Shown: positions 1,244-53,813, numbered from the stretch's first letter. The stretch is 64,000 nucleotides of DNA from Acidobacteriota bacterium (GCA_029263335.1 JAJCXS010000038.1:5823-69822), one strand, 5' to 3'. Notes: generated by a model from the letters alone, not told the origin. Numbers and translations are program-made.

Positions 1244-1255
1244 CGGGCGTCGGTA

Positions 1256-2473: not shown

Positions 2474-2482
2474 TTCCTACAG

Positions 2483-3139: not shown

Positions 3140-3169
3140 CACCAAATTGTACAACGTCGGCACAGATCA

Positions 3170-3198
3170 TTGAGCTAACTAAACATTTATTTGATAAT
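3170..3198 (+). promoter_or_regulatory. Sigma70-like promoter of HMG-CoA lyase containing a candidate TetR operator
   Basis: TTGAGC-N17-GATAAT. The spacer holds the imperfect palindrome AACTAAA-CA-TTTATTT (3177-3192). Confidence 0.55.
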
Positions 3199-3262
3199 AG
3201 GCTGAGCAAGGGAGCGGCAAGACGTATCGCATCCCGCAACCAGCTGGGATCGGTAGGAGTCC

Positions 3263-10386: not shown

Positions 10387-11034
10387 TTAGCGCAACTTGA
10401 CCGAGATCTCGCCGATACCTAGTTCGATGCGAATCTCGGAATCGCCGTTGCCCTCGGCCCAGGCAATCTCCCGTGTGAAGAGGCCCGCGCTGCTGCTGCG
10501 GCCACGGTGGGTCGAAAGCGAACTTTCGCCGATGCCGGTGTCGAGGCTGACACGCCCGACCATTTCCTCGGAGCTTTCCAGCGAAACCTCGCCGATGCTC
10601 ATGTCGACCTTCACATCGCCGAATAACTGCTTCAGCTCCAGTTCACCAATGCTCATGTCGATGCGGACATCGAGTGCCTCGGGCAGGAGCACGATCATCT
10701 CGACGTGCATGCCGCGGCTGCGCCATTTGCTGAAGCCTTCGATCCACAGCTCGATGCGGTCGTTGCGTTCGCGCGACTCGAGCGAGATGTCTTCGGCGCG
10801 ATCAATACACGCGTCGAGCGACCGACGGCTGGAACATTCGATCACGACCTCGACCATGATGCGCTCGCTGGAGGTTCCCTCGACCTTCAGCTCGCCGATG
10901 GGGAAGTCCACGTAGACCTCCTCGAGCGCTGCCGCGTCGAAGTTCTCCGTCAGCGTGCGGACTTCCTCGGGCGCGGCCGGCGGGCCCATAACGAGCGGCA
11001 GTGCCAGGGTCGCGATGGCGGTCAAGTTGCGCAT
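10387..11034 (-). CDS. Secreted DUF4097/LiaG-like beta-strand-repeat protein
   Basis: Signal peptide MRNLTAIATLALPLVMG; repeated x-D-(M/F/T)-x-I-G-E units (VDFPIGE, IDMSIGE, VDMSIGE, LDTGIGE, IELGIGE). Confidence 0.6.
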   Translation of the reverse strand: MRNLTAIATLALPLVMGPPAAPEEVRTLTENFDAAALEEVYVDFPIGELKVEGTSSERIMVEVVIECSSRRSLDACIDRAEDISLESRERNDRIELWIEGFSKWRSRGMHVEMIVLLPEALDVRIDMSIGELELKQLFGDVKVDMSIGEVSLESSEEMVGRVSLDTGIGESSLSTHRGRSSSAGLFTREIAWAEGNGDSEIRIELGIGEISVKLR

Positions 11035-11079
11035 GAGATCTCCGAGTTTGCGAGGGCCGAGCGGCGGCGCTCTACTTCC

Positions 11080-11108
11080 AATACGCGTGCCGCGACCCCG
11101 GAGTTTCA
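11080..11108 (-). promoter_or_regulatory. Candidate ECF sigma promoter (SigW/SigM-like)
   Basis: Minus strand TGAAACT-N16-CGTATT, about 45 nt upstream of the ATG at 11034. Confidence 0.65.
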
Positions 11109-11151
11109 CCACACCCGACGGATAACCGGGGAGCCTCGGGAGGCGCTGCCC

Positions 11152-13839
11152 TCAGAAGTCGAGTGCGTAGGCCAGGGTGGCGTTGATTCCCAGTCCGTCG
11201 AATCCGGACCCGTGCAGCCGGTAGTTCAGGTCGGTGAAGTTGTTGAGTGCGAAGGTGATGCTCTGGCTGGTGGTGAGCGCGTAGTTGCCGCGGATCCCCA
11301 GGGTGAGCCAACCGGGCGTGGCGGTGAATAGCGCCGCCCCGCTACCTCCGGGACCGAGCACACGCGCGATAACGTCGTCGAGCGTTTCGCCCGTTGCCAG
11401 CAGGATTCCGTTTTCCACGAGGCCCAGACGCGGCCCCTGATTGATGAAGAAATCGCTGATGTCGCCCGCGTCGCGAAAGGCGCCGATACGGGAATCGTCG
11501 AGGTCTGCGGGATTCAAACGACTCTGCCGGGCGGCACCTTTTACCACCCCTTCCAGCCACAGCCGGCCGGAGGCGCCCCGCCAGCGGAGGATCGCGGCGA
11601 GATTGTCCGGGGCGATCTTGCGAGCAAAGAAGCCCGTGTCGAGCTCGGTGCCGCGTTGCATTGATGCCTTCACGGTCGCCAGCCAACGGTCGCCGAACGA
11701 CCTCTGAGCGAGCACTTCGAGACCCCACACGCGCAGCCGGCTGACGTTGATCCGGGATACCACCGCGTTGGGCTCGCCAGCGACGAAGATCCGCCCTTGC
11801 TCGTCCTGCGCAACGATGGTCGCTCCGCCGATCTCTTCGCCGACGACATCTTGTCCGACAATCAAGGTGCGACGGTTGATGTTGTCCCCGAAGTTCGACA
11901 GGAAGCCAGTGAACTCGAAGCGCGTTTCGCGATTGAAGTAGCGAAGCCCGCCCTCGTAGCTCCAGACCTTTTCGGGAGTCAGCGCCTGCCATGGCGCACC
12001 TGCGCTGATGGCAGTAGAACTCGCGGAGTCGCCCACCAGGGCGCCGAAGGCCACGGCTTCGTCCGGCGCTACCTCGAAACCTCCTCCAGTGAGACCGATC
12101 TCGCCAAGATCGAAGATGGACGGAGCACGAAAGCCCCGCGCCACGCGACCCCATACATCCAGCGTGTCCGACAGGGTGTAGTTCGCGCCGAGGTTGAATG
12201 TCAGGTCGGTAAAATTGGCCTCGGTGTCGGGCACCAGCTCCAGGCCGGCGATGACGTTGTCCGCGGCACGCGCGCTGTATGCAAAAGTCGAGAACCGCAC
12301 ACCCCCGGACACGCGGAGCCGCCTGTTGATGGTGGTCCATTCGTCGAGCAGGAAGACACCGAACGACGTGTAGGTGGCGCCGTTCGGAACCCGCGGACGT
12401 ACCGCGTTCGTTACACCGCTGCTGGTTTCCGCGCGCACCGCATCGACCGTGTCGCGATAGACCTCGATGCCGCCCGTTACCAGATGAGTTTCGAGACTCT
12501 TGGAGCCGTTGACCTCGAGACCCCAGACGGTGTCGGAACTTTGCTCGACGCGCAGCGTGCTGGTCGGGCGGCGCTGGTCACGTCGGCCGTCCGTCTGTTG
12601 GTTGAGGGATATCTTGGCCTCGACAAAGGTGTCGGTGAAGAACCGCTCATAGCGGACATAGCCAAAGTTGAGGCGCTGCGGGACGAAGTCGGCGCGTACC
12701 CTGCCATCACCGCCGAGAAGCCGATCGTAGCGGCGCACATCGTTCTGTTGTGAGCTCGTGAAGAAGACGTCGATCGAGCTGCTGAAATCGGTGCGCAGGC
12801 TGCCCTTGGCGACTAGGCCGGTCTGGCCGTAGCCGGTGTCGGCGTAGCGGCTGCCGAACGCGGTGCGTACCTGTTCGTCGGTGAAACCGAGGAATCGGAT
12901 CGTCGCGTGGTGCGAGTCGCGGGCACCGCCGCCGCGAACCTCGCCGTGGCGGGTTGCCGAAGCAGCGAGGAACCCGGCGAGCTTGCCGCTGCTGCCGCCG
13001 ACGGTCGCGTGCAGGCCGCCGCCCACCGAGGCCGACTCGCCAAACGCACGCACGCTACCGCTCATGCGCGAGGTGTTGTCGTTGCTGAACGCGGGCGTGG
13101 GTTTGGTGAGAACGTTGATGGCGCCACCCAGCGCGTCGGAGCCGTAGTTGACTCCCGCGGGTCCGAGCAGTGTCTCGATGGATTCCACGCCAACATCCGG
13201 GATCCAGGCAAGGTACTGGGTGTTACCCGCTCGGTAGGTAGCGTTGTTGTAGCGCACACCATCGATCAGATAGAGCACCGCCTGGGCGCTCTGACCGCGC
13301 AGAATGGGCGACCCCTGACCCGGGGTAGTCTGCTGCGTGAGGATGCCGGGCTCTTCGTCGAGCATGCGTGGCAACAGGTCAACCGCGCGAGCCCGCAACT
13401 GCACCTCGTCGAGGGATCTCACGGTTGCCGGGATCTTGCTCTCGCGCTGTACCGTGCCGCGTGAAGCGGTTACCGTGACGCGCTCCTCGACGCCAATCGG
13501 GTACATCACCATCTCGATGGAGATCGCAGGCGAGCGCACCTCGACAACCTGGTAGACGTCGGTGTAGACATCGCTCAGCACGCGCAGCTCGTAGGTGCCG
13601 TATGGAACCTCATCGAGTACGGCCATGCCTGCCGCATCGCTTTCGGCCTGGCGCATGACCTGGCGGGTCGGGCCGAGAAGCTGCACGATCATCTCAGACA
13701 CGATGTGCCCGTCGCGATTGGTGACGCGAACGGCTACTGTGCCGCTATCAACCGATTGCTCCTGCTGCGCGGCTGTGCGAACCGCTGGCACTAGGGAGAG
13801 GAGCATGACGAGCGCGAACTGGGCAGTCTTGGGGCTCAT
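11152..13839 (-). CDS. TonB-dependent outer-membrane receptor with N-terminal carboxypeptidase-regulatory-like domain
   Basis: Signal peptide, TonB-box-like EERVTVTASR, plug motifs PILRG...LYLIDGVR and YGSDALGGAIN, and C-terminal NFTDLNY...LAYALDF ending in Phe. Confidence 0.9.
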   Translation of the reverse strand: MSPKTAQFALVMLLSLVPAVRTAAQQEQSVDSGTVAVRVTNRDGHIVSEMIVQLLGPTRQVMRQAESDAAGMAVLDEVPYGTYELRVLSDVYTDVYQVVEVRSPAISIEMVMYPIGVEERVTVTASRGTVQRESKIPATVRSLDEVQLRARAVDLLPRMLDEEPGILTQQTTPGQGSPILRGQSAQAVLYLIDGVRYNNATYRAGNTQYLAWIPDVGVESIETLLGPAGVNYGSDALGGAINVLTKPTPAFSNDNTSRMSGSVRAFGESASVGGGLHATVGGSSGKLAGFLAASATRHGEVRGGGARDSHHATIRFLGFTDEQVRTAFGSRYADTGYGQTGLVAKGSLRTDFSSSIDVFFTSSQQNDVRRYDRLLGGDGRVRADFVPQRLNFGYVRYERFFTDTFVEAKISLNQQTDGRRDQRRPTSTLRVEQSSDTVWGLEVNGSKSLETHLVTGGIEVYRDTVDAVRAETSSGVTNAVRPRVPNGATYTSFGVFLLDEWTTINRRLRVSGGVRFSTFAYSARAADNVIAGLELVPDTEANFTDLTFNLGANYTLSDTLDVWGRVARGFRAPSIFDLGEIGLTGGGFEVAPDEAVAFGALVGDSASSTAISAGAPWQALTPEKVWSYEGGLRYFNRETRFEFTGFLSNFGDNINRRTLIVGQDVVGEEIGGATIVAQDEQGRIFVAGEPNAVVSRINVSRLRVWGLEVLAQRSFGDRWLATVKASMQRGTELDTGFFARKIAPDNLAAILRWRGASGRLWLEGVVKGAARQSRLNPADLDDSRIGAFRDAGDISDFFINQGPRLGLVENGILLATGETLDDVIARVLGPGGSGAALFTATPGWLTLGIRGNYALTTSQSITFALNNFTDLNYRLHGSGFDGLGINATLAYALDF

Positions 13840-25247: not shown

Positions 25248-26084
25248 CTATCGCCTGCGGATCTGTACGGAGCCTTGCAGCGTCTCGATCTGGATCTCGG
25301 CCGACCCGGTGCCGGTGGTGAAGCGCAGTTCCTGCGACGGCAGCCAGCGGCTTTCGCGCCGCGGCTCCTGGCCGAACGCGTTGTCGATGTCGCCCATCAT
25401 GGTCTCGACGTAGAAGTTGGCGGAGATGTCTCCGGGCACGACCAGTTCGATCGAACCGTTGACGTTCTCGATGTCGATCTCGCCGCCATCGATAACGCCA
25501 CCTGTAAAGCTGATCGTGCCGTTCACGCTCTCCAGGTTGGCTTCGCTCACGTTGCCGGCGCTCGCGGTGATCGACCCGGTGACGTTCTCGATGTCGAGCC
25601 TCGTAGCATTGCCGGAATAGGTGATATCGCCGGTGACCGATTCGATCTCGATGACTCCGTCCACGCCCTCGACCTCGAACGTCGCGGTGACCCCTTCGAT
25701 CTCGAGGCTGGCTCCTGCCGGCAAGTGGATCTCGAGGTTCACATCGATATCGTTGTGGTCGCGCCGACGCCAGCGACGACGACCACGATCGTTGTCGTCG
25801 TCATCCCAGTCGCCGAGGTCTACGTAGATCTCCACCGAGTCGGGGCCACCGTCGATCCCAAACTCGTCGACGTCGTCGCCGATGGTGCCAGTGACCGTCA
25901 TCTCGTTGCCGGCGCCGCCGATGATGCGGATGTGCCCGACGATGATGTCCTCGATTTCCACCCGGACCGTGGGTGATACCACCCGCGTGTCGTCGATCTG
26001 CTGCTGGGCCATCGCCGCATTGGGGAGGGCGAGGAGCCCTACCGCGATGACCGCCGCGATGGATGTTCTCTGAACTGCTTTCAT
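25248..26084 (-). CDS. Secreted DUF4097 family beta-strand-repeat protein
   Basis: Signal peptide ending AMA-QQ; repeats IESVTGDI, IENVTGSI, LESVNGTI, IENVNGSI, VETMMGDI and IETLQGSV. Confidence 0.8.
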   Translation of the reverse strand: MKAVQRTSIAAVIAVGLLALPNAAMAQQQIDDTRVVSPTVRVEIEDIIVGHIRIIGGAGNEMTVTGTIGDDVDEFGIDGGPDSVEIYVDLGDWDDDDNDRGRRRWRRRDHNDIDVNLEIHLPAGASLEIEGVTATFEVEGVDGVIEIESVTGDITYSGNATRLDIENVTGSITASAGNVSEANLESVNGTISFTGGVIDGGEIDIENVNGSIELVVPGDISANFYVETMMGDIDNAFGQEPRRESRWLPSQELRFTTGTGSAEIQIETLQGSVQIRRR

Positions 26085-26127
26085 TGTCCGTCTCCGTTCA
26101 GTCGTTTGAGTGTCTGGCGATGAGCCC

Positions 26128-26721
26128 TTACAGGCGACTCATGCCTTCCAGAAAATTCACCCTCGTTCGGTACATATCGGTCAGCTTGCCGACCAGCTTG
26201 CGGTTTGCCGGATCTCTTTCCAGCGCAGCACGGGCTTCGGTGATCGCCTCGTCGATGAGGCGCAGGTTGGTCTCGACGATCTCGATGGTTTCCGGCGCCA
26301 GCTCGTCGCGCTGCGCGTCGAGGGAGGCCATCAGATCGTCGGTGATGTTCTGATAGGAACGTTCGGCCTGCAAAAAGCCGTTCCAGGCAACGGCCTCAAA
26401 TTCGGTAAGAGCCGGCGAGGAGGTTCCGTCGGCGGGTGCCGCCGGCGAGCGTACGAGATAGGCGGTAATACCCGAGGAGAACGCCACCAGGAGCATTGCC
26501 GCGGTGGAGATCAGACCCACGCGGCGCCAATTCACTCCGGCCGCTGCCGGTACGGGCTCATGGCGGTCCGCCGAGAAGTCTGGCCGCACGATCTTGGCAT
26601 CGCTGATGGCGCTTTCAATGCCTGCCCACAGGTCGCGTTCGGGCTGGATCTCGCGCGGCAGTGTCTCGATGCGGTTCTTCATTTCCTCACCCAGCTCTTC
26701 GTTCCGTTCGTCATGCGTCAT
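26128..26721 (-). CDS. Putative single-pass anti-sigma factor (no zinc motif)
   Basis: Overlaps the ECF gene. Has an N-terminal P-x-R-D-L-W-x-x-I segment, one TM helix and a helical periplasmic part. Confidence 0.65.
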   Translation of the reverse strand: MTHDERNEELGEEMKNRIETLPREIQPERDLWAGIESAISDAKIVRPDFSADRHEPVPAAAGVNWRRVGLISTAAMLLVAFSSGITAYLVRSPAAPADGTSSPALTEFEAVAWNGFLQAERSYQNITDDLMASLDAQRDELAPETIEIVETNLRLIDEAITEARAALERDPANRKLVGKLTDMYRTRVNFLEGMSRL

Positions 26722-27277
26722 GGCCTAGCGCCTCCCGCAGTAGTCGTCTTGCCCGGTGTAGTTGCGCCTTGCAGGTGCCTGGCGCGATGCCCATGAGATC
26801 GGCGATCTCTTGGTGCTGATATCCCTCGATGTCGTAGAGCACGAACACCTCGCGCGCCCGCTCCGGCAGCTGAGCGATGGCAGCATCGAGGTCGACGGTC
26901 GGCCCGCGGTTGGTGCGATCGCCGGTGGTGGCGTGATACGACATGTCATCCTGATGAACTGTGCGCTCGCGCTCGCGCGCCAGCTTGCGTCGGCGGCTGA
27001 GTACGACGTTGGCCGCGACCCGATGCATCCAGGTCGAGAAACTCGCTGCCCCGCGGAAGGTGTCGAGCTTCTGCCACGCCCGGATGAACGCCTCCTGGGT
27101 AAGCTCCTCCGCCTCGGCGACGTTGGCCGTCATACGGAGGCACAGGGCGTAGATGCGCCCGAGGTTGGCCGCGTAGAGGTCCTCGAAGGCGCTGGTATCG
27201 CCGCCAGCAGCGCGGGCGACGAGTTCGGCCGCTTCGTCGTTGTTCAACGCGATACTTCCGCTGGGCGATACCTGCAT
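26711..27277 (-). CDS. ECF RNA polymerase sigma factor (ECF1)
   Basis: AEELTQEAFIRAW, FSTWMHRVAAN, LPERAREVFVL, EIADLMG and KAQLHRAR. Confidence 0.93.
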   Translation of the reverse strand: MQVSPSGSIALNNDEAAELVARAAGGDTSAFEDLYAANLGRIYALCLRMTANVAEAEELTQEAFIRAWQKLDTFRGAASFSTWMHRVAANVVLSRRRKLARERERTVHQDDMSYHATTGDRTNRGPTVDLDAAIAQLPERAREVFVLYDIEGYQHQEIADLMGIAPGTCKAQLHRARRLLREALGHDA

Positions 27278-36943: not shown

Positions 36944-37047
36944 GGCGGCCGATTCTCGCAGATCGGCAGGCTGGCTACCCGCCTCGCTGCTTTGCGATAC
37001 CTTTTTGCGGATCGCCCCGTGCTCCGCGATCCCAAAAGGTCTTGCCG

Positions 37048-39354
37048 ATGCTCCGACTCTCGAACTCCAGTCTGCGGTGTTCGTACGCCTTGCTGGTCTG
37101 CCTGCTGTGGGCCGCCTCGGTGGCGGGTGCGCAAGAAGCCACGGACGCCGCAGAGGCTGTGCCCGCCGACACCAGCCGGCGGGTCGACCTCGTCGCCCAG
37201 CACGCCGCGACTGATCCGGATCGCAACTACGTGGTGCGCGCCGTATTTACGGGCGTGGCGCCAGAGATCGACGGCCATCTCGACGACCCCGCATGGCGGA
37301 ACGCCGAGCCGATCGTGAATTTCACGCAATCGCAGCCCGACGAGGGCACGCCGTCCACCGAGCGAACCGAGGTGCGCGTTCTCTACGACGGCGAGTATCT
37401 CTATGTCTCGGCAATGATGTGGGATAGCCGTCCCGACCAGATGGTGGCAACGGTGCTGCGACGCGACGAGAGCCACAACGACAACGATGCCTTCGCGGTC
37501 ACGCTCGATACCTTCCATGACCATCGCAACGGGTTCTTCTTCGAAACCAACGCCCATGGCGCGTTGTTCGATGCTCAGATTATTGGGGAGGGCGGTACGT
37601 CCGGCCCTGGCGGAGGCTCGGGGTCGACTTTCAACGACGACTGGGACGCCGTCTGGTACGCCGCGGGGCAGACAAGAGAAGACGGTTGGTCGGTAGAGAT
37701 CGCCATCCCGTTCTGGGCCTTGCGATTTGATCGCTCGGCCACCGAGGCCTGGGGGATCAACTTTCGTCGGCAGATACGTCGCAAGACGGAATCCGCGTAC
37801 TGGGCACCCGTGCCGCGGCAGTTCAACGCCACGCGCCTGTCTCTCTCGGGCCTCCTTGTGGGAATGGACAATGTTGCGCGGCCGCGCAATCTGCAGATCA
37901 AACCGTTTGCGCTGGGCGATGTCGGGCAGTTCCCTGCCGGACCCGAGTCGATGCCGAACTCGGTCCATACCACCGAGTGGGGTGGTGACATCGGCGGCGA
38001 CATCAAGTGGTCGATCACACCGAACTGGACGTTGGACGGCACCGTCAACACAGACTTCGCTCAGGTTGAGGCGGACGATGTGCAGATCAACCTGACACGG
38101 TTTCCGCTGTTTTTCCCAGAGAAGCGCGAGTTCTTTCTGGAGAATGCCGGGTTGTTTCAGTTCGGGTCGTCATCCGGCCGGGGAGGGCCGCGGGTCATCG
38201 GTTTCCACTCGCGCCGCATCGGCGTCTTCTCCGGCGAGGAGGTCCCGATCCTGGCGGGCGCACGCGTTACCGGGAAATCCGGGGGGTGGAACCTCGGCGG
38301 TGTGACCATGCAGACGCGCAAACTCGACGATCTCGGGCTGCCCACGGAGAACCACAGCGTGCTTCGTGTTCGACGTGACGTGGGTAGTCGTTCCAGTGTC
38401 GGAGCGCTGTTCACCAACCGCCAGGCGAGTGGTTCCGACTACAACCGCACGATGGGATTCGACGGGCGGTGGGCGCTGAACGATCGGACCACGGTGGATG
38501 GATGGGTCATGAGGACCGCGACTCCAGGGATCGAAGCGGAGTCCGAGTGGGCGGGGGCCGTCTCGGCCAACTGGGCGAGCCCCGAGTGGCAGGTGACGGT
38601 CGCGGCGATGGACGTCGGCGACGGGTTCAACCCGGAACTCGGTTTCGTCAACCGCACTGGCCTCCGTTCGTTCAATCTCAACACCTTCTGGACTCCCTAT
38701 TTCCCGGATTCGACCTGGCTCCGGAATCTCGGCCCGCACGTCACCTTCCAGTACCTGACGGATCGCGATGGCCGCTTGCTGTCACGCTTTCTGCACATGG
38801 ACTACGACATGTTCCTCAAGCGGGGAGACAAGCTGTCGGTCGCGCACAACCGGCGTTTCGAGCAGCTCGACCTGCCGTTCGAGATCGTTCCGGGCGTGGT
38901 GATCCCGGCGGGGGCCTATGGCTTTGACGAGATCCAACTCGAGGCGCAGTCGGACCCGAGTCGCGTGGGATGGGTGCGAGCGCTCTACACCTGGGGCACG
39001 TTCTGGAACGGCCGCACGAAGAACTGGGATCTGAGCGCCGGTTTCCGCATGGGGGCTCGATTCAACGCCTCGGGGTCGGTGCGACTCAACGACGTTACCC
39101 TGGCCGGCGGCGATTTCAAGACGACCCTGGCGAGTTCGCGGATCGCCTACGACTTCAACACCCGCCTGTTCCTGTCGGCGCTGCTTCAGTACGACAGCCT
39201 CACCGACCGGTTCCTCTCGAACGTTCGGCTGCGCTACAACTATGAGCCGCTCTCGGACATCTTCCTTGTCTACAACGAGTCGCGGCTGACCGAGAACCCC
39301 GCATTGATCGACCGCTCGATCATCCTCAAGATCACCAAACTCCTAAGGCTCTAG
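37048..39354 (+). CDS. DUF5916 / CBM9-like domain outer-membrane protein
   Basis: Signal peptide, PEIDGHLDD..W, TFHDHRNGFFF, WSVEIAIPF, WGINF, NTDFAQVEAD and FFPEKREFFLE; beta-strand-rich C-terminus. Confidence 0.8.
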   Translation: MLRLSNSSLRCSYALLVCLLWAASVAGAQEATDAAEAVPADTSRRVDLVAQHAATDPDRNYVVRAVFTGVAPEIDGHLDDPAWRNAEPIVNFTQSQPDEGTPSTERTEVRVLYDGEYLYVSAMMWDSRPDQMVATVLRRDESHNDNDAFAVTLDTFHDHRNGFFFETNAHGALFDAQIIGEGGTSGPGGGSGSTFNDDWDAVWYAAGQTREDGWSVEIAIPFWALRFDRSATEAWGINFRRQIRRKTESAYWAPVPRQFNATRLSLSGLLVGMDNVARPRNLQIKPFALGDVGQFPAGPESMPNSVHTTEWGGDIGGDIKWSITPNWTLDGTVNTDFAQVEADDVQINLTRFPLFFPEKREFFLENAGLFQFGSSSGRGGPRVIGFHSRRIGVFSGEEVPILAGARVTGKSGGWNLGGVTMQTRKLDDLGLPTENHSVLRVRRDVGSRSSVGALFTNRQASGSDYNRTMGFDGRWALNDRTTVDGWVMRTATPGIEAESEWAGAVSANWASPEWQVTVAAMDVGDGFNPELGFVNRTGLRSFNLNTFWTPYFPDSTWLRNLGPHVTFQYLTDRDGRLLSRFLHMDYDMFLKRGDKLSVAHNRRFEQLDLPFEIVPGVVIPAGAYGFDEIQLEAQSDPSRVGWVRALYTWGTFWNGRTKNWDLSAGFRMGARFNASGSVRLNDVTLAGGDFKTTLASSRIAYDFNTRLFLSALLQYDSLTDRFLSNVRLRYNYEPLSDIFLVYNESRLTENPALIDRSIILKITKLLRL

Positions 39355-39519: not shown

Positions 39520-40047
39520 CTACCACATGCGGATGTGGACTTCCTCGTCGCCGTCGATTACGTGCACGAGATCGCCGCTAGGCGCCGCGCGGAGCGCGCC
39601 CACCAGGCGTGAAGCGCGGAACATGTTCTCTTCCTCATCGTAGGCATCGACCATGGCGGCGAGGGACGCCAACGGAATGCGAACATTCACTTTGGTTCCG
39701 TGTCCCTCGTCCACCTGGACCCGCATCACGTCGTCTTCCTTGAAGACACGGACGTGGTCGCTGCCGTCGATCACCTCGACCAGCATCGCGTCAGCCGGAA
39801 TCGCTCTCAGCTCGTCGACGAACCGTGCCAGGTACGGCAGGTACTCGCCGACCTCGCTGTCCATCTGGATGTACTTGGCTTCGTCGGGCGCAAATGCCAC
39901 AGCCACCTGGGCCAGCGACAGCGGCACCGGGACGATGATATGAACATCGTCGGCGTCGACCTCGACGATCATCACCGAGGAGTTGGCTACCACGCCGCCC
40001 ACGAGGGCGACCGGCAGCATGGTCAGTGCGGCGAGCTTGATGAACAT
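39520..40047 (-). CDS. Exported/membrane-anchored hypothetical protein with internal two-fold repeat
   Basis: N-terminal hydrophobic segment; starts 3 nt after the upstream gene's stop; sequence similarity to 40051-40632. Confidence 0.7.
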   Translation of the reverse strand: MFIKLAALTMLPVALVGGVVANSSVMIVEVDADDVHIIVPVPLSLAQVAVAFAPDEAKYIQMDSEVGEYLPYLARFVDELRAIPADAMLVEVIDGSDHVRVFKEDDVMRVQVDEGHGTKVNVRIPLASLAAMVDAYDEEENMFRASRLVGALRAAPSGDLVHVIDGDEEVHIRMW

Positions 40048-40050
40048 GAC

Positions 40051-40632
40051 TTAGCCCTGCGGGTTGGCGTCGATCCAGATGCGCACGGTGGTGTCGCCAT
40101 CGTTGACCTGGAGGATTTCACCGTTGTTGGTGTTGGCCATCTCGGTCAGGGCGCCGACGAGGTTGAGTTCGTTGTCCTCGCCTTCCAGCAGTACATCGAC
40201 GACCGAGAAGGGTACCTGCAGGCGCACCTTATCATCGCCGTCTTCGTCGACCTCGATGAACACGGTATCTTCGCGGCGATAGATGTTGACGGTCTCGTCG
40301 TCGCCCTGAACCTGGACGTAGTCGGCGTCACCGGCGTCGCGGAGTTCGGCCCACATGCGGCGCAGGTCATCGATCTCGACATCGTGTCTGCCGCCGAACC
40401 GAACGTGCCCGTCGAACTCGTCGCCGAAGTCCATGTCGCCATCAAAGGCGTGCTTCTGGGCGAGTTCCATGGCTACCGAGATCAGCGACATCGGCAGGTT
40501 GACGTTTACGCTGGTGCCTTCGTCTTCCATGACGCGGATGTGAATCCAGCCGGCATCTTGGGCCTGCGCGGTCGCGCCCACGGCCAGGAGCATGGCGGCT
40601 CCGATGGCGAGAGAGAGTAGCTTGCGGTTCAT
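40051..40632 (-). CDS. Secreted hypothetical protein with internal two-fold repeat
   Basis: Signal peptide ending AQA-QD; RBS GGAGG; paralog of the downstream gene. Confidence 0.75.
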   Translation of the reverse strand: MNRKLLSLAIGAAMLLAVGATAQAQDAGWIHIRVMEDEGTSVNVNLPMSLISVAMELAQKHAFDGDMDFGDEFDGHVRFGGRHDVEIDDLRRMWAELRDAGDADYVQVQGDDETVNIYRREDTVFIEVDEDGDDKVRLQVPFSVVDVLLEGEDNELNLVGALTEMANTNNGEILQVNDGDTTVRIWIDANPQG

Positions 40633-40684
40633 AGTGTCCTCCGCATGGTCACTGGTGTTGATGGAAGCATGGTGCTTATCTGGC

Positions 40685-40713
40685 TCTACGGCCGCCCGGC
40701 CGCCCAAGTTTCG
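40685..40713 (-). promoter_or_regulatory. Candidate ECF promoter (proximal)
   Basis: Minus strand CGAAACT-N16-CGTAGA. Confidence 0.65.
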
Positions 40714-40726
40714 CCATTGGAGAGAA

Positions 40727-40755
40727 CAGACGCCGAAACGCGGCCGGAAGTTTCA
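40727..40755 (-). promoter_or_regulatory. Candidate ECF promoter (distal)
   Basis: Minus strand TGAAACT-N16-CGTCTG. Confidence 0.65.
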
Positions 40756-40825
40756 TCCGGCGGGTCAATAGGTCGTGACCGAGTGCGCCGGAATCTTGTC
40801 TCGATCGCCTAACCGACGGTGCCGT

Positions 40826-41419
40826 ATGCCCGTCTTACACACAGACATGGACAACAGCCTTCCCGAAGTCATAGCCCGCGCACAGGCGGGAGAAGAAGAG
40901 GCCTTCCGCATGCTCGTAGAGCAGCACAGTCGCAATGTGTTCAACGTGGCCTACCGCATTGTAGGTAACTCCGCAGACGCCGAAGAGGCAGTGCAGGAGA
41001 CGTTCCTGAAGGTCTTCAAGCGTCTGGGCAGCTTCGAAGAGCGCGCACGTTTTACGACATGGCTGTACCGCGTGGCGGCCAACGCCGCGATGGATGTTGT
41101 TCGCAGGCGGCAGCGGCACGCCACCCGCGAGGCTGTCCTCGAGGATCAGGAGGGGCAGCTCCTCCCGTTCGCGGCGGAGGCGCCCGGGCCCGAGCGCGAA
41201 GCAGAGGGTGGAGAGATTTCGGACCACATCTCGGCGGCGATGGATCGACTGACCCCGGGGGAGCGCGCGGCCTTCACGTTGCGCCATCTGCAAGGGCTGT
41301 CGATCAGGGAGATCGGCGAGGCGCTCGACATGCAGAGCAACGCCGTGAAGAACTCGATTTTCCGAGCAGTTCAAAAGATGCGGCGCGAACTCGCGCCGTT
41401 TGCGAGAGAGACGTCATGA
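40826..41419 (+). CDS. ECF RNA polymerase sigma factor (ECF2)
   Basis: AEEAVQETFLKVF, FTTWLYRVAANAAMD, LTPGERAAFTLR and VKNSIFRA. Confidence 0.93.
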   Translation: MPVLHTDMDNSLPEVIARAQAGEEEAFRMLVEQHSRNVFNVAYRIVGNSADAEEAVQETFLKVFKRLGSFEERARFTTWLYRVAANAAMDVVRRRQRHATREAVLEDQEGQLLPFAAEAPGPEREAEGGEISDHISAAMDRLTPGERAAFTLRHLQGLSIREIGEALDMQSNAVKNSIFRAVQKMRRELAPFARETS

Positions 41420-42195
41420 AGCATCCGAACGAACAGGAAATAGTCATGTCGATGCTCGGCGACGGGGATGACGCCGGGGGCATCCAGGCCCATCTGGAGG
41501 AGTGCGCCGAGTGTCGTGCGCAGGTAGCCGACATTGAACGGCTCCTGGCCGTCACGGCGGAGCTGGAGGTGCCCGAGCCCGATGCCGGCTTCGAGGCGCG
41601 CATCTGGGAGCGGCAGCAGGTACAGCTGCGGCAGGCAGCGCGCCAAGAGCGCGAAGCTCAGGTGGAATCGGCGACGGTGATCCCCTTCTGGACGTTGCGG
41701 CGCCTGGCCCCGGTTGGTGCCATGGCAGCGATGTTGTTGGTCGCGTTCATGGTCGGTCTCTACAGTTCGCCACCGGGGACGGAAATCGTGCCTGAAGGCA
41801 GCGCCCCGAGCGGTGACAGGGTGCTCTTCGTCGCCGTCGGTGACCATCTGCAGAGCGCCCGCATGGTGTTGGTCGAATTGGTCAACGCCGAGGGTAACGA
41901 GAGCGTGGACATCTCGGCCCAGCAGGAGCGCGCGCAGACGTTGTTGGCCAACAATCGACTCTATCGCCAGACCGCCCAGCTGAACGGGCAGGCCAGCGTG
42001 GCCGATGTGCTGGGAGATCTGGAGAGAGTTCTTCTCGAGGTCGCGCGAACCTCGGGGGAGGTGCCGGCCGAGGAACTCGACTGGCTGCGTGAGCGGATCG
42101 CATCCCGCGATCTGCTGTTCAAAGTAAGTGTGATTGAAGGACAGACCCGACGAGCCGCGACCGCGGACGCCGGTGACCCAACGGCAACGTTGTGA
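41416..42195 (+). CDS. Zinc-binding (ZAS) anti-sigma factor, single TM helix
   Basis: ATGA overlap with the ECF2 stop. N-terminal His plus HLEECAEC (HxxxCxxC), then one TM helix. Confidence 0.85.
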   Translation: MKHPNEQEIVMSMLGDGDDAGGIQAHLEECAECRAQVADIERLLAVTAELEVPEPDAGFEARIWERQQVQLRQAARQEREAQVESATVIPFWTLRRLAPVGAMAAMLLVAFMVGLYSSPPGTEIVPEGSAPSGDRVLFVAVGDHLQSARMVLVELVNAEGNESVDISAQQERAQTLLANNRLYRQTAQLNGQASVADVLGDLERVLLEVARTSGEVPAEELDWLRERIASRDLLFKVSVIEGQTRRAATADAGDPTATL

Positions 42196-42206
42196 GGAGA
42201 AACGAA

Positions 42207-43481
42207 ATGCGAATCGAACGAGTTCTGCGAATCGGCATCGTGGTAATCGGCGCCGTCGTGGCGCTGCCCCTGGCCGCCCAGCAACGCACCGCGGTGCCGA
42301 CGTCGGAAGCCAGGGCACCGCTGCCCCCTGTGTCCGGGCAGGTCAATGAGGCTTACGACGAGGCCACCGTGGCTTTGGACCGCGGCGACTATGCGCGCGC
42401 CATCGCACTGTTCTCCGAAATCGCCAACGGGCAGGGCGATCGTGCCGACGCCGCTCTGTATTGGGTCGCGTATGCGCAGCAACGACAGGGCGACCGCGCC
42501 GGAGCCGTGAACACGCTCGGCATTCTGCGTCGGGAGTTTCCCGACAGTGCATGGCTGGATGATGCCGACCATCTGGTAGCCGAGATTCAGGGTGCCAGCG
42601 GCCGCGTGCGGGGCGCTCCTCGTGCCGACGAAGACAAGGCCGAGGACATTCGGCTCTATGCGCTCAACGCGCTCATGCACGTCGACGCCGAGAGGGCCGT
42701 GCCGCTGCTCGAGCGCATGATTCGCAGCGATGAGCCGGCGAAGATTCGCCAACGTGCCCTGTTTGTCCTGCTGCAGGCGCACGGCGACGAGGCCTTCGAA
42801 TTGATCGCCGACGTGGCCCGGGACGATTCCGAGCCGGAGATGCGGACCTATGCGCTGCGACATCTGGGGATGTTCGGCGGAGAGAGGGCCGCTGCGCTCA
42901 TGGATGAGATCTACCGGCAGTCGGACGATACCGAGGTCAAGCAGGCCATCATCGCCGGCTACATGATGAACGGCGGCACCAAGAAGCTCTACGAGATTGC
43001 CAAGAGCGAGCCGGTGCAAGAGCTTCGTGTCGTCGCTATTCGTCATCTCGCGATGTCGGGTGGTGCGGACGAGCTCTGGGAGCTGTACGAGAGTGAGAGC
43101 TCCGTCGAGGCGCGAAAAGCGATCCTGGGAGCGGTCTTCATGACCGGAGACTCCTCGCGCTTGCTCCAGGTGGCACAGACCGAGTCCGACATCGAGCTGC
43201 GACGGGCCGCGATCCGCGGTCTGGGCATGGTTCGTCACCGAGGCGAGGGGTCGGGGGGCGATTTGGCGATGGCGCTGCTCGATCTGTATCGCACCAATGA
43301 CGATGTCGAGCTTCGCGAGGCCGTGCTGAACGCGCTGTGGATGCGCGGCGAGGCACGTCCATTGATCGGACTCTACGAAGAGACCGACGATCCGGATCTC
43401 CGGCGACGTATCGTTCAGGCACTATCGATGGTGAATGACGAGGAGGCGGTCGCCTTCCTCATTCGCATCATCGAGCAGTAG
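42207..43481 (+). CDS. Secreted TPR + HEAT-repeat protein
   Basis: Signal peptide; TPR-like GDYARAIALF...ALYWVAYAQ...FPDSAW; about seven HEAT-like units. RBS GAGGAG. Confidence 0.75.
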   Translation: MRIERVLRIGIVVIGAVVALPLAAQQRTAVPTSEARAPLPPVSGQVNEAYDEATVALDRGDYARAIALFSEIANGQGDRADAALYWVAYAQQRQGDRAGAVNTLGILRREFPDSAWLDDADHLVAEIQGASGRVRGAPRADEDKAEDIRLYALNALMHVDAERAVPLLERMIRSDEPAKIRQRALFVLLQAHGDEAFELIADVARDDSEPEMRTYALRHLGMFGGERAAALMDEIYRQSDDTEVKQAIIAGYMMNGGTKKLYEIAKSEPVQELRVVAIRHLAMSGGADELWELYESESSVEARKAILGAVFMTGDSSRLLQVAQTESDIELRRAAIRGLGMVRHRGEGSGGDLAMALLDLYRTNDDVELREAVLNALWMRGEARPLIGLYEETDDPDLRRRIVQALSMVNDEEAVAFLIRIIEQ

Positions 43482-43485
43482 GGAA

Positions 43486-44631
43486 ATGCTGTCGAAGTAC
43501 GCCAGGGTGGCAGTCGCCAGCCTGGTCCTGGGAATCAGCCTCGCGGTTTCGGCCACGACACCTCAGCAGCAGGTTGGGCAGGGCCGAGAAGGCGGGGAAC
43601 CGCGTGGAGTCAAGCACGCCGACCTCGAGCAGCGCGCCTTGTCGGGTGACCTGGGCGCGACGATTGGTGACGCCGGCGGCAGCGCGGGCGTCGCATGGGT
43701 CGGGTACAGCGTACCGGCGGTACACGACGGCGGGTCCATGTGCTGCCACTGGAGGGATGACGAGGGCAGCGACCGTTGCGGAGTCTGTCGACTCGGACGG
43801 CGTGGCGCCTACTCCGATGACGAGGGCTCCGATCACGTGGGCGATGATCACGACGACGGGGTCCTCCTCGACGAGGATGGGCGCGTTCGCGTCTTCGTGC
43901 GCGTCGAAGACGGGAAGATCAGTCGCATCCAGTCGTTCTCGTCGCGCTGCGTGATCGACGCCGGCGGCGCACGAGTTGCCTGGCTGCGGGAGGTGAGCGG
44001 AGCGGCGAGCGCCGAGTGGTTGGCCACGATCGTAGAAGACCGCTTCGGCGGCGAGCGCTCCGACAAGGCGGTCGAAGGTGCGCTCTCGGCGCTGGCGATG
44101 CACGATGGCACCGCCGCTCTCAGTCTGCTCGAGGAGTGGGCGACGGGGCGTCACCCGCGCAAGCTCCGGGAACAGGCGATCTTCTGGCTCGGCGCGGCAC
44201 GTGGGGCCGAGTCATGGACAACGCTGGTGCAGCTCGTGACCGACGCGCCCGACCGGGCGATTCGCGCCCGCGCCGTGTTCGCCTCCTATGTTGCGAAGCA
44301 GCCGGGGACCGTGGACCTGCTGATCGGCGTGGCGCGGAACGACGATGCCACGTCGGTGCGGCGCTCGGCCTTGATGTGGCTCGCACAGCTTGCCGGAGAG
44401 CGCGCGATCGAGGCGATTCAGGCTGCGCTCGATGATCCCGACACCGACGTCAAGCGGCATGCCGTGTTTGCGCTCAGTCAGCTCCCAGCCGATCGAGGCG
44501 TGCCGTTGCTGATCGCCATCGTGCGCGAGAACCCGAACCCGGAGGTTCGCAAGCAGGCGCTGTTCTGGCTCGGACAAACAGGGGATGAGCGGGCGCTCGA
44601 ACTCATCGAGGAGTTGCTGGTCGGGGCCTGA
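43486..44631 (+). CDS. Secreted HEAT-repeat protein with Cys-containing N-terminal domain
   Basis: Signal peptide; CCHW...C..C...C; HEAT units LREQAIFWLG, VRRSALMWLA, VKRHAVFALSQ and VRKQALFWLG. Confidence 0.75.
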   Translation: MLSKYARVAVASLVLGISLAVSATTPQQQVGQGREGGEPRGVKHADLEQRALSGDLGATIGDAGGSAGVAWVGYSVPAVHDGGSMCCHWRDDEGSDRCGVCRLGRRGAYSDDEGSDHVGDDHDDGVLLDEDGRVRVFVRVEDGKISRIQSFSSRCVIDAGGARVAWLREVSGAASAEWLATIVEDRFGGERSDKAVEGALSALAMHDGTAALSLLEEWATGRHPRKLREQAIFWLGAARGAESWTTLVQLVTDAPDRAIRARAVFASYVAKQPGTVDLLIGVARNDDATSVRRSALMWLAQLAGERAIEAIQAALDDPDTDVKRHAVFALSQLPADRGVPLLIAIVRENPNPEVRKQALFWLGQTGDERALELIEELLVGA

Positions 44632-44660
44632 CGATGGTCACCGGTATCGCGACGAGAAGA

Positions 44661-44695
44661 AAAAGCCCCGCCCGGGTTTTCCGGGCGGGGCTTTT
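44661..44695. terminator. Bidirectional intrinsic terminator
   Basis: AAAAGCCCCGCCCGG-GTTTT-CCGGGCGGGGCTTTT, between convergent genes. Confidence 0.85.
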
Positions 44696-44718: not shown

Positions 44719-45072
44719 TTAAGCTACGAGCTCGCGGGCCAGCGCGGCGTCCTCGTTCTCGAGGTTCTCGCGGATGAGCTGCGGCGTGACGCCCACATAG
44801 TTGCAGACTTCCTCGAACCAGCTGCTCTCGAAGAACTCGCGAGGATCTCCGTCCTCGGTCATCTGGCGCAGCTTCTTGCGGTCGTACCGCGACTTGCGCT
44901 CCTGGCCAGCCATACGCTGCAGGAAGCGGTAGTCGTTGACCGCCAGCTCGATGATCGACAGATACATCTGACGGCAAGACTCGACGTCGTGCTGTTCGAT
45001 GCTCTCGGTTACCCGGCCGGGGATTTCCACATCGGAATAGAGTTCGAAGAACTCTTGAGTTGCTGTGGCCAT
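44719..45072 (-). CDS. Small acidic cytoplasmic hypothetical protein
   Basis: 117-aa ORF with plausible codon use and a purine-rich RBS region, ending at a strong terminator. Pattern IIELAVNDY...FFESSWFEEVCNYVGVTPQLIR. Confidence 0.7.
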   Translation of the reverse strand: MATATQEFFELYSDVEIPGRVTESIEQHDVESCRQMYLSIIELAVNDYRFLQRMAGQERKSRYDRKKLRQMTEDGDPREFFESSWFEEVCNYVGVTPQLIRENLENEDAALARELVA

Positions 45073-45132
45073 TGCTCTTACTCGCTTGTGCGGTTGTTGT
45101 CCAAAGTCTATGGCGTAGTTATACAAAACTTC

Positions 45133-45175
45133 TGGATAAGAAAACAACCCCGTTGCACAATATTTGGATAAGAAA
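45133..45175. repeat. Exact 11-bp direct repeat TGGATAAGAAA x2 (candidate operator sites)
   Basis: Copies at 45133-45143 and 45165-45175 (32-bp period) in an AT-rich divergent intergenic region. Confidence 0.7.
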
Positions 45176-45188: not shown

Positions 45189-46070
45189 ATGCAGTACTCG
45201 ATCAAGGCCGCTGCGATGGCCACAGGAGTCTCCGAGGGGCGCCTCAGAACCTGGGAAAGACGGTACGGAATCCCGCAGCCGAACCGCTCCGCCAGCGGCC
45301 ATCGCAAGTTCAATGACGACGATCTCTATGTGATCCGTCGCATGGCGGCCCTCATCGATTCGGGCATGGGTGCGGCCGAGGCCGCAGACGCGGCGAGCAA
45401 TGAGAGCGGCGACGAAAGACCCGAGCCCGTAACTCCACAGCGCGCCAATCCGCTCGTGGATCTGTTTGTCCAGAAGGCTCACGACCTGGACGAGGGTTGG
45501 ATGGTGCGGATCGTCCGAGACTCGGTCTTCTCCAGTGGCTGGGCGCCGACCATGGAGCGAGTGGTTTTCCCCAGTCTTCGTCGCCTGGCGCAGGACTGGG
45601 GTGAAGCCCGGATCTCGATGGCGCACAACCGCTACGCGATGGAGACGGTGCGCACCCTGCTGTCGGCAGAGCTGGTGAAGCTAGGTCCGGTTGAAGATGC
45701 GCGCGGCACGGTACTGCTGGCTGCTGCCGAGGACGACGAGTACGACCTGGCGGCGCTGGCGCTCAGCCTGCTGCTCCGCCTCGTGGAGCTGAAGGTGTAT
45801 TTCGTTGGACGCTCTGTCAGCTGCCAGTGCCTGATCGAGACCGCCAGACAGCTCAACCCGAGCGCGCTGGTGATTGTGGGGACGCGCCGGGCGAGCCCCG
45901 GCAGACTCAACCGGTGCGCGCGGGCGATCGTTGCGAGCCGGCTGTCGACGCCGCTTCTGGTAGGCGGCTCGATATTGACGCGTCGTGACGCGCCGCAGAT
46001 CCCCGGTGTGCACCTGCCGCAGTCGCTGGTGGCCTCGGCCGAGCGCATTCAGCAGGCCGCCGAGGGCTAG
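45189..46070 (+). CDS. MerR-family HTH regulator with CarH/LitR-like cobalamin-binding-fold C-terminus (ligands not conserved)
   Basis: YSIKAAAMATGVSEGRLRTWERRYGIPQPNRSASGHRKF, followed by a four-helix cap and a Rossmann-like domain. Confidence 0.85.
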   Translation: MQYSIKAAAMATGVSEGRLRTWERRYGIPQPNRSASGHRKFNDDDLYVIRRMAALIDSGMGAAEAADAASNESGDERPEPVTPQRANPLVDLFVQKAHDLDEGWMVRIVRDSVFSSGWAPTMERVVFPSLRRLAQDWGEARISMAHNRYAMETVRTLLSAELVKLGPVEDARGTVLLAAAEDDEYDLAALALSLLLRLVELKVYFVGRSVSCQCLIETARQLNPSALVIVGTRRASPGRLNRCARAIVASRLSTPLLVGGSILTRRDAPQIPGVHLPQSLVASAERIQQAAEG

Positions 46071-53689: not shown

Positions 53690-53743
53690 CCTGTTGCTCC
53701 TGTCTTTGACTACAATTCTGGTCGCCGGGCCGCCACGACCGAT

Positions 53744-53772
53744 TGAAACCCCGGGACCGTTCAGGGCGTCTC
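53744..53772 (+). promoter_or_regulatory. Candidate ECF promoter
   Basis: TGAAACC-N16-CGTCTC, about 41 nt upstream of the ATG at 53814. Confidence 0.65.
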
Positions 53773-53813
53773 ATTGAGTGGCCCGGAGACTCCAACTCGT
53801 CAGGAATCAACCC

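Follow-up and report, generated by a model that had tools for sequence, protein, structure and literature searches.

Organization of the locus

A stretch of 64,000 nucleotides from an Acidobacteriota bacterium (GCA_029263335.1 JAJCXS010000038.1:5823-69822), referred to in its entirety as the window, harbors four tightly packed plus-strand genes coding for a sigma factor of the extracytoplasmic function (ECF) class, a predicted membrane anti-sigma factor and two HEAT-repeat proteins with export signals, here named P5 (TPR+HEAT protein) and P6 (Cys-domain+HEAT protein). Two small proteins encoded divergently from this unit are named P1 and P2. We propose that the region from 40810 to 44695 represents an autoregulated four-gene envelope-signalling operon, in which the HEAT proteins act on a periplasmic helical bundle of the anti-sigma factor in the manner of RseB/MucB, a reading to which we assign a probability of roughly 0.55. 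The features of the unit are as follows:

40810–40834, plus strand: own ECF-type promoter of the operon, TAACC-N16-CGTC, with 12 nt between its end and the ECF ATG
40847–41419, plus strand: ECF sigma factor gene, 190 aa counted from the conserved ATG
41416–42195, plus strand: predicted membrane anti-sigma factor gene, 259 aa, with HxxxCxxC and one transmembrane helix
42192–43481, plus strand: P5, TPR+HEAT gene, 429 aa, exported by an N-terminus heuristic
43486–44631, plus strand: P6, Cys-domain+HEAT gene, 381 aa, exported by the same heuristic
44661–44695, both strands: bidirectional intrinsic terminator hairpin with a perfect 15-bp stem and a 5-nt loop, located between an A-tract and a T-tract

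The ECF and anti-sigma genes overlap in an ATGA (41416-41419) and the anti-sigma and P5 genes in a GTGA (42192-42195), while a gap of 4 nt separates P5 from P6. When the intergenic region was aligned with those of two orthologous loci, the ECF start was corrected to the ATG at 40847, which is kept in the orthologs, and the P6 start was corrected to a likely ATG at 43486, directly after the P5 stop. The hairpin (minimum free energy: -40.6 and -42.8 kcal/mol; z = -3.2 on the plus and -5.4 on the minus strand) is located between two convergent genes, P6 and a gene coding for a 142-aa protein (44719-45147, minus strand). With their start/stop overlaps, one upstream promoter and one terminator after P6, the four genes are predicted to constitute a single transcription unit. 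An earlier sequence-only reading of this DNA had described tightly packed genes for an ECF, an HxxxCxxC anti-sigma factor, a TPR+HEAT and a Cys-domain+HEAT protein, closed by a strong bidirectional terminator, with signal peptides on both HEAT proteins. The open reading frame (ORF) list and domain scans bore out the four genes, with the two starts corrected, the perfect stem and its z-scores fit the terminator, and the N-termini of P5 and P6 are both signal-peptide-like by a hydrophobicity heuristic. The region is contained in four DNA sequencing runs of a biofilm metagenome, while no RNA runs containing it were found.

The sigma factor and its predicted membrane partner

The Pfam domains Sigma70_r2 (E = 6e-21) and Sigma70_r4_2 (E = 5e-14) together span the 190 aa of the sigma protein, which furthermore scores 128 bits against the TIGR02937 sigma70-ECF model (cut-off: 42.9). 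It comprises sigma-2 and sigma-4 domains only, without region 3 or 1.1, in keeping with the ECF class (group 4). None of the NCBIfam equivalogs matched it at or above cut-off. Its nearest solved relatives are SigE of Mycobacterium tuberculosis, SigW of Bacillus subtilis (E = 1e-23), AlgU and Escherichia coli RpoE, with CnrH also detectable as a relative (E = 8e-13).

The AlphaFold2 (AF2) model of the anti-sigma factor (predicted local distance difference test score, pLDDT, 87) consists of an N-terminal helical anti-sigma domain, the helices of which are modelled at pLDDT >90, a transmembrane helix (residues 94-116) and a periplasmic helical bundle (residues 133-250). Residues 26-33 (HLEECAEC) form an HxxxCxxC sequence, the zinc-associated anti-sigma (ZAS) motif, and an alignment of 68 sequences shows at least 90% conservation of H26, C30 and C33. 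The best-conserved stretch of the protein in this alignment is extracytoplasmic and extends from R135 to V239, with R135, H144, E154, N157, N180-R184 and E203 as invariant residues of the bundle. The N-terminus weakly resembles RsiW (E = 0.13), and some sources label relatives "anti-sigma factor RsiW". Anti-sigma genes lacking HxxxCxxC were observed in four of the related loci described below (L024, L030, L035 and L063), with VAEDPALRAR as an example of the residues found.

The anti-sigma family comprises 2950 clusters at E ≤ 1e-5 (90% identity clusters), which are full-length and nearly all without a Pfam domain. A Pfam scan of the window protein gave no match at E ≤ 0.01, zf-HC2 (PF13490) included, and PF13490 was found in just one relative among the matches listed. 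The score against NF052375 was 27.5 bits (cut-off: 100). Searches of Pfam, NCBIfam and PDB sequences with the periplasmic domain returned nothing, and a Foldseek search with the model retrieved only generic four-helix bundles (best E = 0.11), with no significant PDB fold match. Furthermore, domain scans identified no FecR or TonB-receptor domains at the locus, as would be found in cell-surface signalling of the FecI-FecR-FecA type.

Two exported HEAT-repeat proteins

P5 has a hydrophobic N-terminus, followed by a TPR part (Pfam TPR_6) and then by HEAT repeats (Pfam HEAT_2; E = 3e-24). The TPR region weakly matches the TPR regions of YbgF/CpoB and BamD, while the HEAT region is paralogous to that of P6. 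In related loci the P5 homolog sits between the anti-sigma gene and the P6 homolog. P6 (Pfam HEAT_2; E = 1.6e-20) is modelled as a Cys-containing beta domain (~42-170) followed by a HEAT solenoid (172-379; AF2, pLDDT 87). Five cysteines are present in its N-terminal part, and C86, C87, C101 and C155, all in the beta domain, are at least 90% conserved. The HEAT part, which dominated the fold search, matches alphaRep structures (E = 4e-32) and PBS-lyase-type HEAT, with fold matches to 7q1f and 3ltj, and a HEAT_PBS match (E = 3.5e-13) likewise assigns the HEAT proteins to the HEAT-like repeats of the PBS-lyase/alphaRep type. Such arrays are a fold used for protein binding. The P6 family comprises at least 1055 homologous clusters, the members of which go by no other names than "HEAT repeat protein" or hypothetical. 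A Rhodothermales metagenome-assembled genome (MAG; L045 9835-10636, plus strand) encodes a 235-aa protein that has HEAT repeats but no beta domain and begins with a membrane-anchor- or signal-like N-terminus.

Export was judged by an N-terminal hydrophobicity heuristic rather than by SignalP, with the cytoplasmic N-termini of anti-sigma factors serving as the control. By this measure, 63/68 members of the P6 family have signal-peptide-like N-termini, compared to 0/26 of the anti-sigma controls. Neither the MucB_RseB Pfam family nor its fold was found in P5 or P6, which match HEAT and TPR families only; their likeness to RseB/MucB is functional only.

The operon's own promoter

In Acidobacteriota, Zixibacteria, Ignavibacteria and Gammaproteobacteria, the ECF ATG is preceded at a distance of ~35-40 nt by the motif cTAACC-N15/16-(C/T)GTCTAA. 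Variants with CAACC or AAACC take its place in other phyla, with the base before AACC being T, C or A by phylum: GTCAACC...CCGTCAAAG is found in Aminicenantes, GCGCAACC...TGTC in Gemmatimonadota, and TGTAAACC...TGTCT in both Bacteroidota and Calditrichia. The motif, searched for as a loose pattern, was present at most 130 nt upstream of the ECF gene in 48/66 loci, compared to 0.9% of random 130-nt segments. A conserved promoter in this position reads as a signature of positive autoregulation. As the CGTC ends 12 nt before the ATG, the sigma mRNA would be leaderless or nearly so. The offset between the -10 element and the ECF ATG is 11-12 nt in many orthologs as well (40831-40849 in the window), with no Shine-Dalgarno sequence.

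In two loci a near-copy of the extended motif precedes an adjacent DUF5916 gene. The own promoter of L031 is TGTAAACC-N16-GTGTCTTG, and the same 8-mers are found at 543 before a gene coding for a 912-aa DUF5916 protein (543-3507). Similarly, the own promoter of L033, GCGAACCTTTT...CGTCTTA, has a counterpart in TGGCAACCTTTT...TGTCTTA at 10578, before a gene for an 882-aa DUF5916 protein (10578-13390). A divergent motif of the own type facing gyrA in L050 and L058 was judged not meaningful, being more than 400 nt away.

Conservation of the four-gene core

All window proteins were compared with 80 loci encoding P6 relatives, taken from one-genome-per-species contigs. A same-strand ECF gene is located within 5 kb upstream of the P6 homolog in 57/59 loci having at least 3.8 kb of upstream DNA, and in 51 of those 59 a clear TPR/HEAT homolog lies between the two. 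All-against-all ORF clustering recovered an ECF gene in 70 loci, an anti-sigma factor of the window type in 39 and a second anti-sigma cluster in 29, the latter all from the Gemmatimonadota-labelled part of the set. No other neighbouring families common across phyla emerged from this clustering, the rest being lineage-specific housekeeping or two-component genes. A reverse comparison starting from four distant anti-sigma homologs gave the order ECF, anti-sigma, TPR/HEAT, HEAT in all four contexts (4/4), with unrelated flanks. From the upstream ECF genes and the reverse contexts taken together, the four-gene core is therefore one unit.

The loci carry at least seven phylum-level labels, including Acidobacteriota (with Aminicenantes, Vicinamibacterales and Thermoanaerobaculia), Gemmatimonadota, Zixibacteria, Ignavibacteria, Bacteroidota/Rhodothermales, Calditrichia, KSB1, Zhuqueibacterota and Gammaproteobacteria (Lysobacterales, Woeseiaceae), while a small number of titles (Eubacteriales, Actinomycetes, Patescibacteria) appear to stem from binning errors. 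The anti-sigma cluster of Gemmatimonadota has the transmembrane helix and bundle in common with the window type (hhalign 98.7%, E = 1.7e-16), but not the cytoplasmic part. The version in this phylum shows the same gene order and periplasmic anti-sigma domain, an own promoter of similar kind (GCAACC...TGTC) and an occasional link to DUF5916. By contrast, the window version is a short Acidobacteriota form, with the ZAS motif in the anti-sigma N-terminus, a P6 of ~380 aa rather than ~550 aa, and P2-P1 as neighbours.

A divergent pair of exported proteins

The region between the ECF operon and the preceding gene harbors the following features:

40051–40632, minus strand: P2, exported acidic protein, 193 aa, pI 4.1; outside the conserved core
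39520–40047, minus strand: P1, P2 paralog, 175 aa, pI 4.4, with a hydrophobic N-terminus
40730–40754, minus strand: distal P2-P1 ECF-type promoter, TGAAACTT-N15-CGTC; -35 and -10 kept in L001, L003 and L081
40688–40712, minus strand: proximal P2-P1 ECF-type promoter, CGAAACTT-N15-CGTA; -35 and -10 kept in L001, L003 and L081
39432–39464, both strands: GC-rich hairpin separating P1 from the convergent DUF5916 gene (z = -4.0, -5.1), probably a bidirectional terminator at the end of the P2-P1 unit

P1 and P2 share 28% identity (E = 5e-12), and the signal peptide of P2 is MNRKLLSLAIGAAMLLAVGATAQAQ by the hydrophobicity heuristic. Substitutions relative to their orthologs fall mainly at the third codon position (e.g. 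17/11/73), and P1 and P2 are therefore real coding genes. Antisense ORFs overlapping them were rejected on the basis of third-position G+C (GC3) and of the number of substitutions at each codon position. For P1, searches of Pfam, NCBIfam and PDB sequences yielded nothing, and for P2 only a sub-threshold Pfam match to DUF7545. P1 and P2 each have a two-fold internal pattern, in which xIxVxVxE...VxVxLPxSL and ...VxVxDGDxxVxIW both occur twice.

In orthologous spacers both P2 promoters retain their -35 and -10 elements amid variable surrounding bases, and the own promoter of the ECF operon has the same AAC-N17-CGT(C/A) core and spacing. The -35 elements of the pair read (T/C)GAAAC[T/C] in the window, L001, L003, L081 and L084, and these genomes have CTAACC as the own -35.

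In the sequence-only reading, the pair and the ECF operon had been joined into a six-gene module. Its description of the pair, namely divergent exported paralogs behind tandem ECF-type promoters, stands, given the 28% identity and two conserved GAAAC-N17-CGT promoters. The module as drawn does not hold in the gene-neighbourhood comparison: no P1/P2 members were detected within ~10 kb of the other 78 modules by tblastn or with six-sequence and 26-sequence hidden Markov models (HMMs), and the pair occurs alone in more distant genomes. Among the 80 loci, P1/P2 are found only in the syntenic L001 and L003, which also keep the DUF5916, 142-aa and MerR neighbours, and a 60%-identical P2 homolog in L081 is still beside the module with the same synteny. 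P2 homologs of 41-43% identity (L082/L083 and L084/L085) have no module adjacent. The homolog in L082/L083 lies between HpcH-type lyase and PqqD-like genes, with a DUF5916 gene ~1.3 kb downstream, while the P2-P1 pair of L084/L085 (L084 7279-9114) follows an LTXXQ (Spy/CpxP-type) gene and has TGAAACT-N16-CGTA before the P2 homolog.

A profile search of 1.84 billion representatives retrieved 2027 members of the P1/P2 family at E ≤ 1e-3, nearly all of ~180-195 aa; the family, which lacks a Pfam family, is far larger than a word-index search had suggested. A P1-sized gene follows the P2-like gene within a few bases in every context retrieved (including L090-L094), except in L082/L083. The occurrence of the pair without the module, its two-gene contexts and the size of its family therefore mark it as a widespread separate unit, and its adjacency to the ECF operon is specific to the lineage of the window (window, L001, L003 and L081). 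Furthermore, xAAC-N16-18-CGT is found 50-125 nt upstream of the P2-like gene in 8/8 lineages with upstream DNA, and the P2 family is therefore generally ECF-dependent. With an ECF-type promoter in every lineage examined, this unannotated family of ~2000 representatives of ~185 aa is a likely envelope-stress product.

These comparisons make it doubtful that the six genes form one module in which this ECF directly drives P2-P1 as a dedicated output. Such an arrangement would account for the back-to-back promoters, with -35 elements ~55 bp apart, for the AAC-N17-CGT(C) core and spacing common to the pair's and the own promoters, the -10 CGTCT being found in both the distal and own promoters, and for the retention of this arrangement in four related lineages (window, L001, L003 and L081); the base before AACC also varies among phyla (T, C, A) in the wider family. 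However, none of the other 78 modules has P1/P2 nearby, the pair retains a TGAAAC-type promoter without an adjacent module (L084/L085, L082), and the -35 difference between CTAACC (own) and (T/C)GAAAC (pair) is stable in all four syntenic lineages, whereas the DUF5916 promoters of L031 and L033 copy the extended own motif. TGAAACC-N16-CGTC is also found before an unrelated permease gene (53745), and the window contains a second ECF gene. For the narrower proposition that the adjacent sigma factor reads the P2 promoters, we would put the odds somewhat short of even.

Proposed role of the HEAT proteins

From the conserved gene order, coupling, promoter and domain architecture, and from export signals assigned by the heuristic, we infer that the HEAT proteins contact the anti-sigma factor, together with the direction of control and the signal. 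In the four-gene signalling operon that we propose, a class-I-type anti-sigma factor bearing a zinc-finger-like HxxxCxxC would tether the sigma factor to the membrane. P5 and P6, as co-transcribed exported alpha-solenoids, would most likely bind the conserved periplasmic bundle of the anti-sigma factor and, when bound, set its stability or conformation, either by shielding it from proteolysis until displaced by an envelope cue, or by acting as co-sensors. Such a role would be RseB/MucB-like, with an unrelated fold. Once freed, the sigma factor would transcribe its own operon from cTAACC-N16-CGTC, as well as a regulon which in some lineages may include DUF5916 outer-membrane proteins, while P2-P1 would represent a separate ECF-dependent two-gene unit. 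The HEAT proteins are favored as partners of the bundle because the linkage of the three periplasm-facing components is strict and spans phyla, because the bundle is retained where the cytoplasmic anti-sigma part has been exchanged (Gemmatimonadota), and because no other partner is encoded in the unit. The RseB-like role suggested for them in the sequence-only reading is plausible and fits their strict co-occurrence with this conserved periplasmic domain.

Several observations weigh against this proposal. Co-transcription fits the HEAT proteins equally well as response products. L024, which is a Lysobacterales MAG, has the own promoter a second time, as GGCTAACC-N16-CGTCCAAC between the TPR/HEAT and Cys/HEAT genes (3484, plus strand), where, directly before the P6 homolog, it would serve as an internal promoter for the last gene. 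The HEAT-only gene of L045 has no ECF gene within 10 kb and carries TGTAAACC-N16-TGTCTTGT ~90 nt upstream. The ZAS motif is missing from the gammaproteobacterial anti-sigma factors and from that of L063, with the remaining protein and four-gene order retained, and the mechanism may therefore differ among lineages. Finally, the taxon labels are record titles of MAGs and may be wrong.

The main rival explanation builds on the first three of these points: the HEAT proteins would be the output of the system, as stress-induced periplasmic scaffolds or chaperone-like proteins that do not act on the anti-sigma factor, and the TPR+HEAT protein could serve outer-membrane or cell-wall assembly. Behind an autoregulated promoter the HEAT genes would rise with sigma activity, as this explanation expects; the additional promoter before the P6 homolog in L024, the ECF-type motif upstream of the solitary L045 relative and the weak CpoB/YbgF- and BamD-like character of the P5 TPR region fit it as well. 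It is harder to reconcile with the strict cross-phylum link to one periplasmic anti-sigma domain, even where the cytoplasmic part has been exchanged, since pure ECF-regulon effectors rarely stay fixed in an operon over such distances, and it leaves the periplasmic domain without a candidate partner in the unit. We consider this explanation less likely than the proposed action of the HEAT proteins on the bundle.

Sensing of thiol/redox state or metals through the anti-sigma HxxxCxxC or the P6 beta-domain cysteines, as in RsrA-type ZAS proteins, is improbable despite the at least 90% conservation of H26, C30 and C33 and of C86, C87, C101 and C155 in the exported beta domain, because the ZAS motif has been lost in gammaproteobacterial members and L063, which otherwise keep the module, while cysteines in an exported domain are most simply disulfides; moreover, in many membrane anti-sigma factors with a ZAS motif, RsiW among them, the bound zinc is structural and control is exerted by proteolysis.

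Comparison with known systems

ECF sigma factors are a main route of envelope sensing in bacteria, and almost all mechanistic knowledge of them comes from Proteobacteria, Firmicutes and Actinobacteria. The systems closest to the window operon are rpoE-rseABC and algU-mucAB by function, SigW-RsiW by sequence, and CnrH-CnrY-CnrX by logic. As in rpoE-rseA-rseB-rseC of E. coli and algU-mucA-mucB of Pseudomonas, an RpoE/SigW-like ECF gene comes first in an autoregulated operon, followed by a single-pass anti-sigma gene and then by one or more exported accessory proteins. RseB binds the periplasmic domain of RseA and blocks RseA cleavage, which is the role proposed here for the HEAT proteins. The window operon differs in that it encodes two accessory proteins rather than one, these being TPR/HEAT solenoids rather than proteins of the MucB_RseB fold, and in an anti-sigma periplasmic bundle without a Pfam family or PDB fold match. 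Furthermore, RseA lacks the HxxxCxxC present in the window anti-sigma factor.

SigW-RsiW of B. subtilis similarly pairs its sigma factor, among the closest solved to that of the window, with a membrane anti-sigma factor bearing HxxxCxxC, and the P2 promoters (TGAAAC-N17-CGTA/CGTC) resemble the SigW consensus, which is TGAAAC-N16-CGTA. The extracytoplasmic domains of the two anti-sigma factors are, however, unrelated, the own promoter has CTAACC rather than TGAAAC at -35, and we know of no HEAT partners of RsiW. In CnrH-CnrY-CnrX of Cupriavidus, a separate extracytoplasmic all-helical protein is likewise encoded with the sigma/anti-sigma pair, and CnrX signals to the anti-sigma factor. CnrX is, however, a small membrane-anchored metal sensor and CnrY a minimal anti-sigma factor; HEAT and TPR repeats are absent from this system, and its gene order is different.

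Searches of about 8.4 million full texts retrieved no paper in which HEAT-repeat proteins are connected to ECF or anti-sigma systems, and found no mention of DUF5916. The main text of the ECF classification (Casas-Pastor et al. 2021) makes no mention of HEAT repeats, while the gene context may be listed, without study, in its group catalogue. The four-gene operon, which recurs in many phyla, was thus found described in no paper, and its new element is the presence of accessory periplasmic proteins of a new fold in an ECF/anti-sigma operon. The operon family is large (2950 anti-sigma clusters and at least 1055 Cys+HEAT clusters) and is found in hard-to-culture soil and sediment phyla, with exported alpha-solenoids in the place taken by RseB/MucB in the textbook system. 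Should the anti-sigma factor indeed be gated by the HEAT proteins, this would represent a new input design for regulated proteolysis and would provide a function for an unannotated periplasmic domain. The conserved own promoter furthermore offers a direct handle for reporter assays and regulon prediction.

A more far-reaching scheme, which we regard as speculative and on balance unlikely, would have the anti-sigma bundle, the TPR+HEAT protein and the beta-domain+HEAT protein form an undescribed periplasmic receptor complex that gates anti-sigma proteolysis. This complex would provide Acidobacteriota, Gemmatimonadota and several neighbouring phyla with their main input for envelope stress, with a regulon including DUF5916 proteins and, in the lineage of the window, P2-P1. 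If true, it would place three large families of unknown function in one physiological context.

Neighbouring genes and other promoters

The gene convergent with P1 is given for context only:

37042–39354, plus strand: CBM9+DUF5916 neighbour, 770 aa, with a signal peptide and the Pfam domains DUF5916 and CBM9_1

DUF5916 genes are located within 10 kb of the module in 6/78 non-syntenic loci. A promoter of the own type was looked for upstream of the window's DUF5916 gene and none was found. A conserved GATCGC...GCGATC palindrome lies in its upstream region and in that of L001; of this palindrome, L003 retains the GATCGCCCC half alone.

At 53743-53774 (plus strand), TTGAAACC-N16-CGTCTCAT (TGAAACC-N16-CGTC) is located just before the permease gene, which starts at 53778. 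This site is of the same class as the distal P2 promoter and suggests a wider putative TGAAAC...CGTC regulon in the genome. A second ECF operon (25248-27277, minus strand) encodes a 188-aa ECF sigma factor, a 197-aa protein without a Pfam match, which is likely an anti-sigma factor, and a 278-aa DUF4097 (toastrack) protein. Its upstream region differs from both promoter classes at 40.7-40.8 kb, and this second sigma factor (26711-27277, minus strand) is not an obvious driver of P2-P1, its upstream sequence being CAAACC-N18-TCTAAG rather than TGAAAC...CGT.

The 142-aa gene beyond the operon terminator has no family match; L001, L003 and L081 all retain, next to it, a MerR/CarH-like regulator and a penicillin-amidase gene. 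Together with the gene at 45189-46070 (plus strand), it represents a separate syntenic block outside the ECF unit.

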